A stretch of DNA of 39,464 nt from an uncultured Candidatus Saccharibacteria bacterium (GTDB lineage Bacteria; Patescibacteriota; Minisyncoccia; Phycocordibacterales; UBA918): assembly GCA_964432455.1 (NCBI GenBank), contig CAYSNO010000001.1, positions 4,883-44,346 of the forward strand, given 5' to 3'. Below the pieces are notes generated by a model. The model saw only the letters and a list, made by a program, of their open reading frames with translations. It was not told where the DNA came from and made no database searches. Below, piece after piece: positions 3,011-39,464 of this stretch (the first letter of the stretch is position 1; each line of letters starts with the position of its first letter). A program made the position numbers and the translations under genes.

Positions 3011-3769
3011 ATGCAAAAAGAACTCGTTTATATCTACGGAAAACACGCCATTGATGAGGCCTTGAGTTTTCGTCCTGACTTGGTTTCTGAACTCTACGTA
3101 GCGGCGGATTTTCGTGATGCTAAACTTCTTGCCAAATTCGAACGAGCTAAAGTAGCGCCAAAACTGCTTAATGAAAAGCGTCTACCAGGCGGCCTTCGTA
3201 ACGATGCAGTACACCAAGGAGTGATAGCCGGTGTGTATGTAGCCGGACTCATTACTGAGTACAAGCGCTTTATGGACACGCTGACCTTAACGCCTGACAC
3301 GGCCATTCTCGTCCTTGGTGAAGTACAAGACCCGCACAATGTGGGTGCTGTCATTCGTTCCGCTGCTGCTTGTGGCTTCGCTGCGGTCATGATTCCACCA
3401 CATAATCAAGCACCACTCACGGGGACGGTAGTGAAGGTGTCTGCTGGTATGGCCTTCCGTATCCCGATTGTTGAAATCCGCAACGTAAACGCTACCTTAA
3501 CTGACCTTAAGAAACGTGGTGCGTGGGTATATGGATTAGCTGGAGAGGCTGGCTCAGTGCCACTGCCAACCGAACGCTTCACGAAACCATCGGTATTTGT
3601 ACTTGGGAACGAGGGCCATGGGCTTCGCCAAAAGACTCGCGAGGCATGTGATACGTTGTTGTCGATTCCGATGCATCCACGCTGTGAATCCCTCAATGCA
3701 GCTGCGTCTGCAGCGATTGTCATGTACGCCTGGAGTACTGAACATGGGGGAGCACTCCAACCTTCCTAA
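3011..3769 (+). CDS. TrmH/SpoU-family RNA 2'-O-methyltransferase (RlmB-like)
   Basis: N-terminal substrate-binding segment IYGKHAIDEAL. SpoU motifs include DPHNVGAVIRSA, LGNEGHGL and SLNAAASAAI. Confidence 0.8.
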   Translation: MQKELVYIYGKHAIDEALSFRPDLVSELYVAADFRDAKLLAKFERAKVAPKLLNEKRLPGGLRNDAVHQGVIAGVYVAGLITEYKRFMDTLTLTPDTAILVLGEVQDPHNVGAVIRSAAACGFAAVMIPPHNQAPLTGTVVKVSAGMAFRIPIVEIRNVNATLTDLKKRGAWVYGLAGEAGSVPLPTERFTKPSVFVLGNEGHGLRQKTREACDTLLSIPMHPRCESLNAAASAAIVMYAWSTEHGGALQPS

Positions 3770-13877: not shown

Positions 13878-13939
13878 GAACGTGCCCAAAAGCCCCTCAT
13901 ACTTTGTTGCACTTCGCTCAAAAACATTCATCGTGAGAA

Positions 13940-14000
13940 AGTCTGGGAGACTTTCGCAAGAGGTTGTCAGCTAATTTGGAAAAATAGCGACAACCTGTAC
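13940..14000 (+). repeat. Copy of the hairpin module also found downstream of tRNA-Glu (39260-39348, opposite strand)
   Basis: AGTCT-GGG-AGACT hairpin plus the AGGTTGTC(A)GCTA...TAGCGACAACCT hairpin. A 21-nt exact match AAAAATAGCGACAACCTGTAC links it to the other locus. Confidence 0.7.
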
Positions 14001-14146
14001 AGCTTCTGTAAGAAGTGTCTATATACGCCTCATATTTTTTCGCTCGTGCGCCTCGTCTAAGGAACTTTTGACCACGCTCGCAAAGTTCGTAAAAAGCCAG
14101 TTCGACTGGTATTTATTGCGATTTTGCGGTACTGTAGGGCTGTTAT

Positions 14147-15940
14147 ATGACGTCTCATATTAGAAATTTCAGTATCATTGCGCACATCGACCACGGCAAG
14201 TCGACTCTGGCTGATCGTATGCTCGAGGTGACACGTACGGTAGAAACCCGCAAGATGAAAGAACAGGTCCTTGACTCGATGGAGCTGGAACGGGAGCGTG
14301 GCATCACTATCAAGATGCAGCCGGTGCGTATGAAGTATATGCATAACGGAGTAGAGCACCAGCTCAATCTCATCGATACACCGGGGCACATCGACTTCTC
14401 GTATGAGGTATCTCGTGCCCTTAAGGCCGTTGAAGGGGTACTCCTCCTCATCGATAGTACCCAGGGTATCCAGGCGCAGACGCTGACAACACTCTCGATG
14501 GCGCGCGAGCAAGGACTTACCATCATTCCGGTCCTCACGAAGACCGACATGGGACACTCACGACCGGATGAAATCGCTGAGTCAGTGATGGAGCTCCTTG
14601 GTTGTGAACGTTCGGAGATTCTCCTCGTATCTGGCAAGACGGGTGCTGGCGTACCTGAACTCCTCGCGGCCATTTGTGACCGCATTCCGGCGCCAAAGCC
14701 GAGTACCTTAGATGCCTACCGCGGACTTATCTTCGATTTTACCTACTCGAACCACCGCGGGGTGATTGTCTTCATGCGCGTCTTTGATGGGGAAGTAAAG
14801 AAAGGTGATCAGCTTTGTTTTGTGGCTGGTGGTAAAAGCTTTACTGCCCTTGAGGTGGGTATGGTGACCCCGAGCGAAGTACCGTGTGACAAGATCTCAG
14901 AGGGAGAAATCGGCTACATCGTCACTGGTATCAAAGAGCCAGGGGTAGCGACGGTAGGTGACACCCTCACCCTTGAAAAGAAACCAGCGCCACCACTCTC
15001 TGGCTACTCGCCGGCGCGTCCAGTGGTTTGGGCATCAATTTTCCCGGATAGTCAGGATGACTTCACCATGTTGCGTCAGGCCCTTGATCGCCTCAAGCTC
15101 TCAGACTCATCACTCTCTTACGAAGAAGAGTCCTCGGGTGTCCTTGGACGTGGGTTCCGCTGTGGTTTCCTCGGCATGCTCCATCTCGAGATCGTGACTG
15201 AGCGTTTGCGTCGCGAATTTGATATTGAGATTATTATTACTTCACCGTCAATTGCCTATGAAGTAACGTTTGACGATGGACATATTGAGTCTATCTACGC
15301 GGCCTCGCGGTTCCCTGATCATGGGGAAAAAGTCTCAGTGCGTGAGCCATGGCTCCTCGGTCAAATCATCACCCCTGTCGATCACCTCGGCAACATCATG
15401 ACGCTCTTGTTTGATCACGAAGGTGGGATTCTTGAAACCGAAGTCCTCAAGGATGGACGTAACCTTCTCACGATTGAAATGCCGCTCCGTGAACTGATGC
15501 GGAACTTCTTTGATAAACTCAAAAACGCTAGTAGCGGCTATGCATCGCTCTCATACGAAATCGCGGAGATGCGCCCGGCGACTGTGGTTCGTATGGATGT
15601 ACTGGTGGCTGAGGAACTCATTACCGCATTTTCGCGAGTAGTCGGGGAGCGGCGGGCGGAGTTTGATGCGCGGGCGGTCGTTGATAAGCTCTACGACAAC
15701 ATGCCGCGACAGCAGTTTGTGACGAAGCTCCAAGCCAAAGTCCGAGGCAAGATTATTGCTTCTCGCTCACTCTCAGCCTTCCGCAAAGACGTGACCGGTT
15801 ACCTCTACGGTGGCGATATCACCCGTAAGATGAAACTCCTTGAGAAGCAGAAGAAGGGGAAGAAGAAAGCGCTGGAGTTGGGGAAGAATCGGGTTAATAT
15901 ACCTCAAGACGTCTTCATGAAAATGGTAAAATCAGATTAA
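14147..15940 (+). CDS. lepA: Elongation factor 4 (LepA)
   Basis: IRNFSIIAHIDHGKSTL, DTPGH and the LepA C-terminal domain. Confidence 0.95.
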   Translation: MTSHIRNFSIIAHIDHGKSTLADRMLEVTRTVETRKMKEQVLDSMELERERGITIKMQPVRMKYMHNGVEHQLNLIDTPGHIDFSYEVSRALKAVEGVLLLIDSTQGIQAQTLTTLSMAREQGLTIIPVLTKTDMGHSRPDEIAESVMELLGCERSEILLVSGKTGAGVPELLAAICDRIPAPKPSTLDAYRGLIFDFTYSNHRGVIVFMRVFDGEVKKGDQLCFVAGGKSFTALEVGMVTPSEVPCDKISEGEIGYIVTGIKEPGVATVGDTLTLEKKPAPPLSGYSPARPVVWASIFPDSQDDFTMLRQALDRLKLSDSSLSYEEESSGVLGRGFRCGFLGMLHLEIVTERLRREFDIEIIITSPSIAYEVTFDDGHIESIYAASRFPDHGEKVSVREPWLLGQIITPVDHLGNIMTLLFDHEGGILETEVLKDGRNLLTIEMPLRELMRNFFDKLKNASSGYASLSYEIAEMRPATVVRMDVLVAEELITAFSRVVGERRAEFDARAVVDKLYDNMPRQQFVTKLQAKVRGKIIASRSLSAFRKDVTGYLYGGDITRKMKLLEKQKKGKKKALELGKNRVNIPQDVFMKMVKSD

Positions 15941-20802: not shown

Positions 20803-21102
20803 ATGGACCCCATGCCAACCGATCAACACGAACTTATTATTAAACTCCTACGAGAGAATCAGGAGCTCGTGCGGCAGAACAATGAGCTTTTGATTCGCCA
20901 AGAACGACGTGAACGTCGCCGTTTCATCTTTAAGGTGATTTGGTACACGATACTTCTCGGTATCCCACTTCTCGCCTACTTCTATCTCTACAGTATGTTT
21001 GCGGGCATCACTGGTGCGGAAACGACTGGTATGCAGATCAATGGCATCAATGTCCCGCCTGGGGTAATTGAAGGTCTCATAGAGACCTATACGGGGCGGT
21101 AG
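20803..21102 (+). CDS. Hypothetical small membrane protein
   Basis: 99 aa with a charged helical N-terminus and one TM helix. TATAAT at 20789-20794 lies 8 nt upstream. Confidence 0.5.
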   Translation: MDPMPTDQHELIIKLLRENQELVRQNNELLIRQERRERRRFIFKVIWYTILLGIPLLAYFYLYSMFAGITGAETTGMQINGINVPPGVIEGLIETYTGR

Positions 21103-21120
21103 GCTCTAACGCCGTGGTTA

Positions 21121-21612
21121 CTGCTCATTTCGACCCAGGGCTCGACCCAGAATTGCGGCTATTTACTTCACTTCGCTTACCAGGTCAAAGGACGGGCTCG
21201 GTCACGAGTTACTAAGTCTTTTATTCACTATGTTCATAAAAGTCTAAGTACTCTCGACCCCGACTCGACTGTTTTGCTCCTATCGTCGCAAAACATGTCT
21301 GCGCCTTTCGAGCCCGCACGTGACTGATACTAATTAGTCGGGCCCGGTCACGCTCATGGATATTTTATTTCGTACCTCATAAAATATCTCATTCGCCCGA
21401 CCCGGACTGTTCCGGCCCTAAAAGGGACCCGGAACAGTCTTTCGAGCCAAGGCTCGTCCTGACGGTCACCAAGCTAGATTATTTCACTGCGTTCATAATC
21501 TAGCAGGTGCCGCGGGACACGCCTCACTTGTTTTGGCATTAGGAATAGACAAAACATCGTTCCGGCGTTCGAGCCCGCACGCAACTGAAATTAGTCAGTT
21601 GCTCCCCAAGCA
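21121..21612 (+). repeat. Array of 4 divergent ~90-140-nt structured units containing tRNA T-loop/acceptor-like fragments
   Basis: Recurrent order: hairpin, TTCGAGCC, hairpin, GGTCAC or CCCCAAGCA, then an A/T-clamped hairpin. No credible ORF. See findings. Confidence 0.7.
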
Positions 21613-21665
21613 CAGCATACACAAAAAGCGCCCAATGGCGCTTTTTGTGTATGCTGTGCTTGGGG
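21604..21665. repeat. 29-bp perfect inverted repeat (4-nt loop) overlapping the 3' end of tRNA-Phe; probable terminator
   Basis: CCCCAAGCACAGCATACACAAAAAGCGCC-caat-GGCGCTTTTTGTGTATGCTGTGCTTGGGG. The right arm overlaps the tRNA at 21657-21665. Confidence 0.85.
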
Positions 21666-24289: not shown

Positions 24290-24614
24290 TGATCTAGTGT
24301 GTGGGCCACCCACACGACTAATCAATCGTTTGCTGGAGACTGAATTCGAGTCTACGTTTGAGTTGTGCCAGAGCACGGCCACGCAATTTCAATTGCTGTT
24401 CTCGCTTTCGAGCATCAGGCTCTGCTGCATATGCTTCATAGTACAGCAATACCAGTGGGCGCCGTGGTTTGGTGGATTGTACGTCTCCAGCGTTATGTTC
24501 TTTTAACCGTCGCTTCAAATCGTTGGTTGAACCTACATATAGTTCATTATCTTTGATACTTCTGAGTATGTAGAGATAGAACATAACGAACGATTGATCT
24601 AGTGTGTGGGCCAC
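24290..24614 (-). mobile_element. GIY-YIG gene cassette bounded by 20-bp direct repeats at the valS stop codon
   Basis: TGATCTAGTGTGTGGGCCAC occurs at 24290-24309 and 24595-24614. A 10-bp inverted repeat ATCAATCGTT/AACGATTGAT lies just inside each repeat. Confidence 0.6.
24318..24584 (-). CDS. GIY-YIG nuclease family protein (small, stand-alone)
   Basis: FYLYILRS..LYVGSTNDLKRRLKEHN..PLVLLYYE motifs. Start set at MFYLYIL. The longer ORF reads through the duplicated valS tail. Confidence 0.85.
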   Translation of the reverse strand: MFYLYILRSIKDNELYVGSTNDLKRRLKEHNAGDVQSTKPRRPLVLLYYEAYAAEPDARKREQQLKLRGRALAQLKRRLEFSLQQTID

Positions 24615-38598: not shown

Positions 38599-38665
38599 GG
38601 CAGTAGTATACCGTTTGTTGGTGGTTTTATATAGGATGGGGAAATGGGGGTTGGAAAAGATTTTA

Positions 38666-39199
38666 TTAACTAAAAAGAATTCCAACTACTATCAAGAGAA
38701 TGATTCCAACTACTGCGATACCAGATAGCCAAGAAATTACAGGAAATATTCTCTCTCCAATTTTCTGAAAGCGTGATGACGGTGGTACAGATTCGCCGTT
38801 GATAAAACGAACCGCATAGAGTGATTTAATAGCAAAAAATAAAACAATTGCTGCTAAAAATATATTACTGCCACCTTGTGCATCAGTGATCTTATTATAG
38901 AAAGTTACAATCAAGCTCATGCCTGACAAAGTAATCACAACCCATGCCGTCCATTCCTTCTTTATGTAGCCAAACAGAGAACCTGCAAAAATAGAAATTA
39001 CGCCATCAATCCATGACCCAGGCAAAATAGTAGTTAATAGTATTAAAATGATACCAAGAATAATGAATGTCCAAGCAATGGACATAATCACTTCATATCC
39101 CATTTCTTTTGAGATAATTTTCAATGACCATGCAGAGTTATTGGTATTTGATTTTGAAAATTGATACCAGCGAGGCTTGTGCTCTTGAACTTCATTCAT
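38666..39199 (-). CDS. Hypothetical polytopic membrane protein (AT-rich gene)
   Basis: About 5 TM helices. TGgTATAAT (hexamer 39206-39211) lies 6 nt upstream of ATG 39199. Confidence 0.6.
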   Translation of the reverse strand: MNEVQEHKPRWYQFSKSNTNNSAWSLKIISKEMGYEVIMSIAWTFIILGIILILLTTILPGSWIDGVISIFAGSLFGYIKKEWTAWVVITLSGMSLIVTFYNKITDAQGGSNIFLAAIVLFFAIKSLYAVRFINGESVPPSSRFQKIGERIFPVISWLSGIAVVGIILLIVVGILFS

Positions 39200-39225
39200 C
39201 AAAAAATTATACCATGATATTTTTG

Positions 39226-39246
39226 TGCACCTACGGGGAATCGAAC
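39226..39246 (-). repeat. Orphan direct copy of a tRNA T-loop/acceptor 3' end
   Basis: GTTCGATTCCCCGTAGGTGCA. 17 nt (39230-39246) are identical to tRNA-Glu 39415-39431. There is no matching 5' half. Confidence 0.7.
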
Positions 39247-39248
39247 AT

Positions 39249-39410
39249 TACATGTTCAGTACAGGTTGTCGCTATTTTTTATCGCTTCGCTCATAAAAGT
39301 AGCTGGCAACCTTTTCGATTCCCACGTAAACAGTCTCCCAGACTGTTTACTCGTAGGGTCACGCAACAAAAACGGCATCCACTAAAAGTGAATGCTCGTT
39401 TTTGTACACG
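39249..39410 (-). repeat. 160-bp structured mini-element between the tRNA-Glu 3' end and its direct partial copy
   Basis: Contains an inverted tRNA 3'-end copy split by a hairpin (39314-39363), the module shared with 13940-14000, and an A/T-clamped hairpin (39271-39303). Confidence 0.65.
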
Positions 39411-39464
39411 TGACCCTACGGGGAATCGAACCCCGGTTACAGGAATGAGAATCCTGTGTCCTAG
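39411..39464 (-). tRNA. tRNA-Glu (anticodon CTC), 5' part beyond the window; CCA not encoded
   Basis: ..CTAGGACA CAGGA-TTCTCAT-TCCTG TAAC CGGGGTTCGATTCCCCG TAGGGTCA. Resembles canonical tRNA-Glu (GGACAC, GTAAC). Confidence 0.85.

Follow-up and report, generated by a model that had tools for sequence, protein, structure and literature searches.

Why should the 3' end of a tRNA-Glu gene be followed at close range by an inverted, split copy of itself and then by a direct copy, with hairpins and no gene in between? The question is raised by an earlier note on the stretch of DNA analysed here (hereafter the window, 39,464 nucleotides in total), which took this locus for an att-like mini-element and weighed two origins for it: excision or decay of an integrative element that left a remnant, or a miniature non-autonomous element that is mobilised in trans. 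The att-like reading is supported by our analyses, and data from related genomes favour the second of those two accounts over the first. We consider it likely, with a probability of roughly 0.7, that the segment at 39230-39410 belongs, as one copy, to a family of hairpin-rich insertion elements, non-autonomous and without genes, that are approximately 150-300 bp in length and occur in Saccharibacteria-like Patescibacteria.

The window is chromosomal, with genes including those for GlmS, TsaD, a class I aminoacyl-tRNA synthetase, LepA and MurJ, and its closest GlmS relatives in the genome collection are metagenome-assembled genomes of Candidatus Saccharibacteria (58-62% identity). A 98-aa ORF with a GIY-YIG domain (24321-24614, minus strand) adjoins the synthetase gene. 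Comparison loci and contigs set beside the window bear L-numbers: a look-up of the 177-aa protein adjacent to the element yielded eight contigs, and a metagenome scan with the 3' half of tRNA-Glu(CTC) as query yielded 17 loci. The 177-aa protein, an ORFan falling into two clusters, was dropped as an anchor for distant relatives. Three contigs (L001-L003) reach past the end of the window at 39464 and complete the gene as tRNA-Glu(CTC) (L001, 9718-9790).

Anatomy of the copy at tRNA-Glu

The window holds the 3' 54 nt of the tRNA-Glu(CTC) gene on the minus strand (39411-39464), recognised as a 5'-truncated tRNA match in Rfam and lacking an encoded CCA; all features below are given in the sense of this gene. 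The segment running from the T-loop to the 3' strand of the acceptor (X, GTTCGATTCCCCGTAGG, 39415-39431) lies within the functional tRNA and forms the first copy of a direct repeat. It is followed by S, a terminator-like palindrome with an A-tract and a T-tract (39366-39405), recovered both by inverted-repeat search and by the terminator scan, in which it appears as a hairpin followed by a T run. The arms of S (ACAAAAACG/CGTTTTTGT, 39366-39374 and 39397-39405) lie in the 45-nt spacer whose self-pairing had been noticed previously, and homologues of S occur in L093, L096 and L010. Beyond the spacer, the last 10 nt of the tRNA and 2 trailer nt (CGTAGGGTCACG, 39409-39420) recur in perfect inversion as the first part of the antisense copy (CGTGACCCTACG, 39352-39363), just as the earlier note described. 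The second part (GGGAATCGAA, 39314-39323; TTCGATTCCC on the plus strand), found by repeat search, is antisense to the T-loop and the 3' strand of the T-stem. Between the two parts, at the acceptor/T-stem boundary, stands hairpin I (GTAAACAGTCT-GGG-AGACTGTTTAC, 39326-39350). The presence of this splitting hairpin is thus borne out, and its stem is longer than the 9 bp first given, with perfectly complementary arms of 11 nt (39326-39336 and 39340-39350).

The antisense copy gives way to module M, here of the beta type (39247-39313), which contains a helix (AGGTTG/CAACCT) showing compensatory changes across homologues, an AT-rich hairpin capped by GAGCGAAGCGA (39282-39292) and a right end in ..GTACTGAACATGTAATG. 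Homologues of this module occur in L093, L096, L010, L009, L099 and L102, and at 13.9 kb in the window itself. The att-like right boundary is X', the second copy of the T-loop/acceptor segment (39230-39246). The 17-nt direct repeat is exact, as had been claimed, and extends to 22 nt at 91% identity; the claim that it exceeds chance also stands, with 0.05 matches per window expected when up to 3 mismatches are allowed. The repeats enclose no gene: their spacing is 185 bp, not 160 bp as first estimated, and contains no ORF. By analogy with the occupied site described below (L094), the unit of approximately 185 bp would include a regenerated tRNA end together with its terminator.

When the 210-nt region is folded as DNA and compared with shuffled sequences, z-scores of -13.0 (minus strand) and -12.6 (plus strand) are obtained. 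With X included in the fold the antisense arm pairs with X, and when the trailer is folded alone the arm pairs with X' and M is enclosed. The window X' stops 5 nt short of the tRNA 3' end. The window copy is old, with a truncated X', and is shared with the diverged relatives L093 and L096; with its right repeat decayed, it is probably immobile. Its close homologues are found in L093 (97% identity), L096, L097, L099/L014 and L010, among which hairpin I and the M helix covary. In L010 and L099, X' extends through ..GTCAC and a terminator comes next. The second element of L099/L014 carries, in its displaced T-loop fragment, a 13-nt insertion (AAGGCGCAGCCGG) with a GGC-GCA-GCC mini-hairpin, and mini-hairpins capped by GNA recur throughout the elements.

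A family at tRNA genes and at the ftsZ 3' end

The layout of the tRNA-Glu copy is not peculiar to it. A shared plan, which in gene sense runs X, S, an antisense X split by hairpin I, M and a partial direct copy X', is found at the tRNA-Phe and tRNA-Glu genes of the window, at tRNA-Glu(TTC) in L009 and L010, at tRNA-Arg and tRNA-Phe in L011, at tRNA-Ser in L012 and at tRNA-Val in L014. More finely, the order is X, the apex palindrome S, the acceptor-strand antisense, hairpin I, (C)GT(G), the T-loop antisense ending in ..TCGAA, M, the right end and X', with right ends reading either ..GTGAC or ..CTGTAAG/ATGTAATG. The targets are tRNA-Glu, -Phe, -Ser, -Val and -Arg, among which we count six tRNA species, and the 3' end of ftsZ. 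Copies at tRNAs, ftsZ and other gene ends amount to more than 15 loci, none with coding capacity, and the layout recurs across genomes whose GlmS proteins are only about 60% identical. In a scan of the last 28 nt of each tRNA against the 250 nt downstream, an inverted match of at least 10 exact nt was found in 10 of 41 distinct Saccharibacteria-type tRNA contexts (the window together with the loci). The 39 contexts taken from other phyla gave no such match, and 1600 shuffles gave 3.

Three types of M can be told apart: alpha (..GCGATGCCGnAGGCAAGCGAGnCGGGGTCGAG..CTTAGTnAyTyGTGAC), beta, as in the window tRNA-Glu copy, and gamma, as in the window tRNA-Phe copy. These types occur at different targets in different genomes, alpha modules being present at Ser, Val, Glu and ftsZ, and each time the antisense arm matches the gene at which the element lies. 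The inverted split copy is an integral and conserved part of the element, neither a by-product nor debris. Elements also stand in tandem or within one another: an alpha unit is followed by a beta unit in L099/L014 and by a second alpha unit in L091/L100, a short beta element is nested in the loop of hairpin I in L010, and L102 likewise shows arrays and nesting.

The parallel at tRNA-Phe to which the earlier note had drawn attention holds, as the tRNA-Phe element carries an antisense copy of the 3' end of its own gene, split at the same acceptor/T-stem boundary. It belongs to a sister array of at least four units on the minus strand (21100-21656). The first unit comprises S (21613-21656), the two parts of the antisense copy (21604-21612 and 21563-21578) on either side of hairpin I (21581-21602), and a gamma M that reaches GGTGAC at about 21457; the antisense copy accordingly reads TGCTTGGGG, A, hairpin and GT (21579-21603), and GCGGGCTCGAACGCCG. 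Further units include an alpha-type remnant (21200-21267), and each unit of the array ends in ..GTGAC, after which a decayed copy of CGAGCCCG follows. A short beta-type copy on the plus strand (13933-14022), downstream of a 559-aa ORF and before lepA, contains the hairpin GAAAGTCT-GGG-AGACTTTC, GGTTGTC..GACAACC and ..CTTCTGTAAGAAG. The flanks of this copy resemble a decayed direct repeat (AGCCCCTCATACTTTGTTGC / ACGCCTCATATTTTTTCGC).

Alpha-type units also follow ftsZ in the lineage of the window (L001, 4780-5080), in L102 (10750-11500), in L091 (about 3100-3300) and in L014 (about 14700-15000). Here the order is the last 13 to approximately 40 coding nt, the stop codon, the apex, the antisense copy, M, ..GTGAC, and decayed copies of the segment coding for AVPAFL, with up to three displaced copies of the C-terminal coding segment. 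WGAVPAFLR is encoded by different synonymous codons from one of the four lineages to the next, and in each the antisense arm matches the version of that lineage. Pairing has therefore been maintained over time, whether by selection or by conversion of one arm by the other. Searches of Rfam 15, permissive thresholds included, returned no family matching the element: only the tRNA passes, and the weak matches are hairpin artefacts. In the literature searched we likewise found no description of such elements in Saccharibacteria or Patescibacteria. The family, undescribed as far as these searches show, is not limited to tRNAs. A viral origin was considered and dropped, as viral contigs scanned with the element motifs gave only chance matches inside coding regions.

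The maintained pairing bears on the possibility that the structure evolved in place as an RNA or DNA element of benefit to the host, for example as an extended bidirectional terminator, a processing stem paired with the 3' end of the gene or a small RNA from the trailer. Under this hypothesis one would point to the antisense arm, which tracks synonymous changes at ftsZ and still complements the gene end where X' has decayed (window, L093 and L009), to the terminator-like S, to the trailer RNA, which folds alone with a z-score of -8.4 and with the arm pairing X', and to the recurrence of gene-sense apexes of the form GA-NN-GNA-N'N'-GA. However, the elements are patchily distributed among orthologous tRNAs with a clean insertion polymorphism, they form arrays and nests, a terminator stands between the gene and the antisense arm, Rfam provides no match, and the helices are nearly devoid of G-U pairs, an unusual trait in an RNA selected for its structure. 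We consequently regard a host-beneficial element as quite unlikely.

The same pairing statistics inform the level at which the structures act. Pairs were counted on arms extracted by hand, because a MAFFT alignment of the beta elements misaligns hairpin I. Hairpin I takes 17 different sequences at the same position, with one G-T among 150 pairs and the remainder Watson-Crick, and S together with X forms perfect palindromes of 29 bp at the window tRNA-Phe (in the first unit of the array, the tRNA end included) and 30 bp at the L014 tRNA-Val. Since the hairpins are almost purely Watson-Crick and these palindromes perfect, the evidence favours DNA-level hairpins or homogenisation of palindromes over RNA under structural selection. 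Apexes in gene sense recur both as GA-NN-GNA-N'N'-GA, in which NN and N'N' covary, and as GAGCTTGCGAA, and the gene-sense strand is therefore the structured one.

Perfect palindromes that join the gene end to S are also what might be expected of a replication error, in which template switching at hairpins (tandem inversion duplication, or ODIRA) generates an inverted triplication with no recombinase involved. The order of X, antisense X and X', with hairpins at both junctions, corresponds to the inverted-triplication signature (for the concept, PMC4689423), and the window X' is followed by sequence resembling the start of S (TGCACAAAAA versus TGTACAAAAA), as a duplication model would also give. 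Yet such an error accounts neither for the conserved M modules at unrelated loci and genomes, nor for the constant presence of hairpin I within the antisense arm, nor for a clean insertion of 223 nt with a tRNA-Phe-type module at tRNA-Glu in L094; moreover, ftsZ already suggests differences between X and X' that only an imported copy could explain. An origin by replication error is accordingly very improbable in our judgement, and we return to the reading of a family of insertion elements.

Several other candidates were tried and rejected. A tRNA-like gene on the opposite strand would have poor acceptor pairing (5/7), and the handful of G-T versus A-C cases give no consistent direction. A primer-binding site for mature tRNA does not fit, as the arms match the gene and its trailer and not CCA. 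A hammerhead or an H/ACA-like three-way guide was set aside, with linkers of only 1-3 nt and no Rfam match.

An empty and an occupied site at tRNA-Glu

The earlier note had proposed that related genomes be compared for empty and occupied sites, and such a pair exists at the same tRNA-Glu, where the insertion is a sister element. The upstream context is common to L101 and L094. In the empty L101, the tRNA runs into a terminator of its own (CATGTCAAGATAGCGG...), while L094 has 223 extra nt between two copies of the 17-nt tRNA-end repeat TTCCCCGTAGGGTCACA. After the tRNA, L094 reads S palindrome, TGACCCTACG, hairpin, GTG-GGAATCGAA, gamma module, ..GGTGACCGTCAGGATCA, the second TTCCCCGTAGGGTCACA and then the trailer of L101, so that in this recent insertion X' is complete and the original trailer comes next. 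The gamma module is almost identical to that at the window tRNA-Phe, with arms that match Glu. This sole clean pair involves a gamma-type element, and none was found for the beta type of the window; nor was an excised or circular form of the element observed. Occupancy is otherwise patchy, element-free orthologous tRNAs including those of L090, L092, L095, L098 and L104, the tRNA-Phe of L010, the tRNA-Ser of L013 and several tRNA-Val genes.

L094 is also a chimera: it is Glu-specific as far as the T-loop antisense TCGAA, of Phe type from CCGCCGGAACGATG through GTCAGGATCA, and Glu-specific again from TTCCCC, and both switches therefore lie at the T-loop. Recombination between elements at this shared T-loop motif explains the exchange of modules, not the origin of the elements.

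The tRNA-Glu end receives other DNA as well, directly after ..GGGTCAC. A gene for a 576-aa serine integrase (Pfam Resolvase and Recombinase, PHROG integrase) converges on tRNA-Glu in L102 (4312-6042, plus strand) and in L090, and one-gene inserts of 0.6-1 kb lie at the same end in L093, L092 and L010, those of L093 (0.9 kb, one ORF) and L092 (1 kb) each ending in ..GGGTCAC. Insertions thus concentrate at this gene end, a hotspot that takes in one-gene cassettes as well as a serine-integrase island. A 414-aa ORF in L104 (7490-8731, plus strand), with no Pfam or PHROG match and adjoined by a DNA methylase, converges on tRNA-Glu too, and the 3' ends of the converging genes in L102, L090 and L104 overlap the tRNA-Glu gene. 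In L005 (1-323), from which the tRNA is absent, an FtsK-like C-terminus and a 58-aa ORF precede a beta element with the junction ..GGCTCAC|GTGTAC, and the sequence before this junction (GGTTCCATCACGATTCGGCTCAC) resembles a decayed tRNA-Glu 3' end. This left junction was considered as an alternative att junction and rejected; a larger insertion between tRNA and element, as in L093 and L092, is the better account.

Next to the window copy lies what appears to be a neighbouring unit of the same array (38636-39229, minus strand), consisting of an extended -10 motif (TGGTATAAT, 39206-39214), the 177-aa ORFan (38666-39199) and a decayed T-loop fragment (ATTTCCCCAT, 38636-38645). The ORFan is membrane-like and represented by only 2 protein clusters in 5.8 billion; because the extended -10 lies only 6 nt before its ATG, its mRNA is probably leaderless. 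In the close relative L093, which lacks the ORFan, X' abuts the same CCTATATAAAACC sequence, upstream of a 298-aa gene, that follows ATTTCCCCAT in the window. We infer from this comparison of sequences that the ORFan is a cassette of approximately 640 bp inserted into X'.

A hotspot of this kind invites the view that the window locus is what decay has left of a larger element, whether integrative island or prophage, or else of a second tRNA-Glu gene, in which case the 160 bp reported at first would be an immobile att-proximal leftover. The integrase converging in L102 and L090, the one-gene inserts in L093, L092 and L010, the truncation of X' in the window and a partial 5' copy of tRNA-Glu upstream of the gene are all in keeping with it. 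However, the same small, gene-less unit with conserved modules is present at many genes and in many genomes, the comparison of L094 with L101 shows the small unit inserted alone, and the larger inserts lack its ends. Decay of a tandem tRNA, which the earlier note had named as grounds for abandoning the att reading, fails on another count, because the partial 5' copy, found at the empty L101 but missing from the occupied L096, is independent of the 3' repeat. For the same reason a split or nested old tRNA-Glu, composed of the upstream 5' pseudo-half and X', was rejected, its parts occurring independently in L101 and L096. That the locus is a mere remnant is thus improbable, and insertion of the small element as such remains the account that we prefer. 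A reading as att half-sites of a large serine recombinase was also rejected, the integrase island of L102 being without the ends of the element.

The partial 5' copy upstream of tRNA-Glu, outside the window end, belongs to a unit of its own, conserved in L001 (9569-9717, just past the end of the window), L013, L092-L094, L101, L102 and L106. The unit contains the first 13-21 nt of the tRNA, hairpins with GA-N6-CGA apexes and a copy of the anticodon arm; its apex stem covaries (ATCGTC/GACGAT, ATCACC/GGTGAT, ATCGCC/GGCGAT), and it is flanked by a direct repeat of approximately 38 nt made up of the leader and the tRNA 5' end. It looks like a mirror image, 5' of the gene, of the elements at the 3' end.

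Known systems and a possible mode of insertion

Islands and prophages integrated at tRNA genes leave a regenerated tRNA and a displaced 3' fragment (Islander database, PMC4383910). The elements resemble them in that the gene is intact (complete in L001), the displaced 3' fragment forms a direct repeat at the end of the element (39230-39246 and 39415-39431 in the window), the repeat starts in the T-loop, arrays stand in tandem at a single tRNA, and empty and occupied alleles can be compared, in this case for the sister element at the same tRNA (L101 and L094). Unlike such islands, they measure only 150-300 bp with no integrase and no gene (the window copy being 185 bp with no ORF), contain within them the att segment again in antisense, interrupted by a hairpin, and occur at the 3' end of ftsZ as well.

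The absence of an enzyme gene of their own, the many dispersed non-coding copies (tRNAs, ftsZ and other gene ends, as above), the insertion polymorphism, the arrays and a presumed mobilisation in trans are shared with cis-mobilisable elements (CIMEs), integrative mobilisable remnants and MITEs, though no partner element for mobilisation was identified. In contrast to MITEs and CIMEs, the elements lack fixed terminal inverted repeats, their repeats are copied from each target, and they are much smaller than described CIMEs. Where MITEs have family-wide terminal inverted repeats and target-site duplications of fixed length, the ends here differ with the target and the repeat varies, from 3-7 nt at ..GGGTCAC to 15-19 nt at T-loops.

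Elements of the IS200/IS605 type carry a Y1 HUH transposase and subterminal hairpins, and insert 3' of a short target without duplicating it. The hairpins and strand-specific motifs of the elements described here fit this scheme, as does the idea of an internal sequence that, lying next to a hairpin, pairs with the target, with an arm of approximately 20 nt as against 4 nt; the duplication of the gene end does not. No Y1 HUH gene came up among the loci examined. With these and with REP, BIME and REPIN sequences they share short, near-perfect Watson-Crick hairpins after gene ends, nested mosaics and strand-specific apex motifs. REP palindromes have been surveyed elsewhere (PMC3733652). Unlike REP sequences, the elements are site-specific and duplicate the gene end, and no GTAG or CGTC tag was seen in them. 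Hairpin I often begins with GTAA and ends with TTAC, where the REP tag is GTAG, and no RAYT was seen among the loci examined.

The elements also recall recombination sites that act as folded single strands, namely integron attC and the attP of CTX phage: by pairing of core copies in opposite orientations a branched stem can form that imitates a duplex target, extra-helical features lie within that stem, and cassette-like arrays gather at one platform. An integron attC site is an imperfect palindrome (R''-L''...L'-R') with a 7-nt core repeat, and goes with an IntI integrase and attI. In the elements, by contrast, the repeat block measures 15-19 nt and spans the whole stem, and insertion is at the end of a tRNA gene or of ftsZ. 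Neither a GTTRRRY core nor IntI was found, and nothing pointed to Xer. None of the known systems compared fits on all of its defining features.

Under the reading that we prefer, integration would be site-specific, with either the T-loop or the very 3' end (..GGGTCAC) as its site, the gene end would be regenerated from a copy supplied by the element, and catalysis would be provided in trans by an enzyme encoded elsewhere. X or X' may pair with the antisense copy and fold into branched DNA, single-stranded or cruciform, and this structure might serve as the recombination site of the element or as a device for recognising the target. No recombinase or transposase was found linked to the elements, nor among the ORFs of the window in the best 25 families listed. 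To our knowledge, the standard att sites of tyrosine and serine recombinases need no distant antisense copy, and for this reason the antisense copy is not explained by any mechanism tested.

A bolder proposal, which we hold to be doubtful, is that the antisense arm acts as a guide carried by the element, which would find its insertion site, as such or as a folded single strand, through approximately 20 nt of pairing with the gene end, with hairpin I as a protein handle and M as a scaffold. This would amount to programmable, nucleic-acid-guided insertion in the CPR, and the tRNA-Glu end would be an integron-like platform for empty units and one-gene cassettes. If the target image does serve in recognition or folding, it would represent a new and possibly reprogrammable way of specifying an insertion site.

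The genomes of Saccharibacteria are tiny, and few descriptions exist of how mobile DNA moves within them. The ends of their tRNA and ftsZ genes appear to be colonised by very small, structured elements that carry an antisense image of their target. Even on a conservative reading, these elements account for the recurring 'pseudo-tRNA' fragments and long palindromes in these genomes, flag likely break points of metagenome assembly, and provide markers of strain-level variation.
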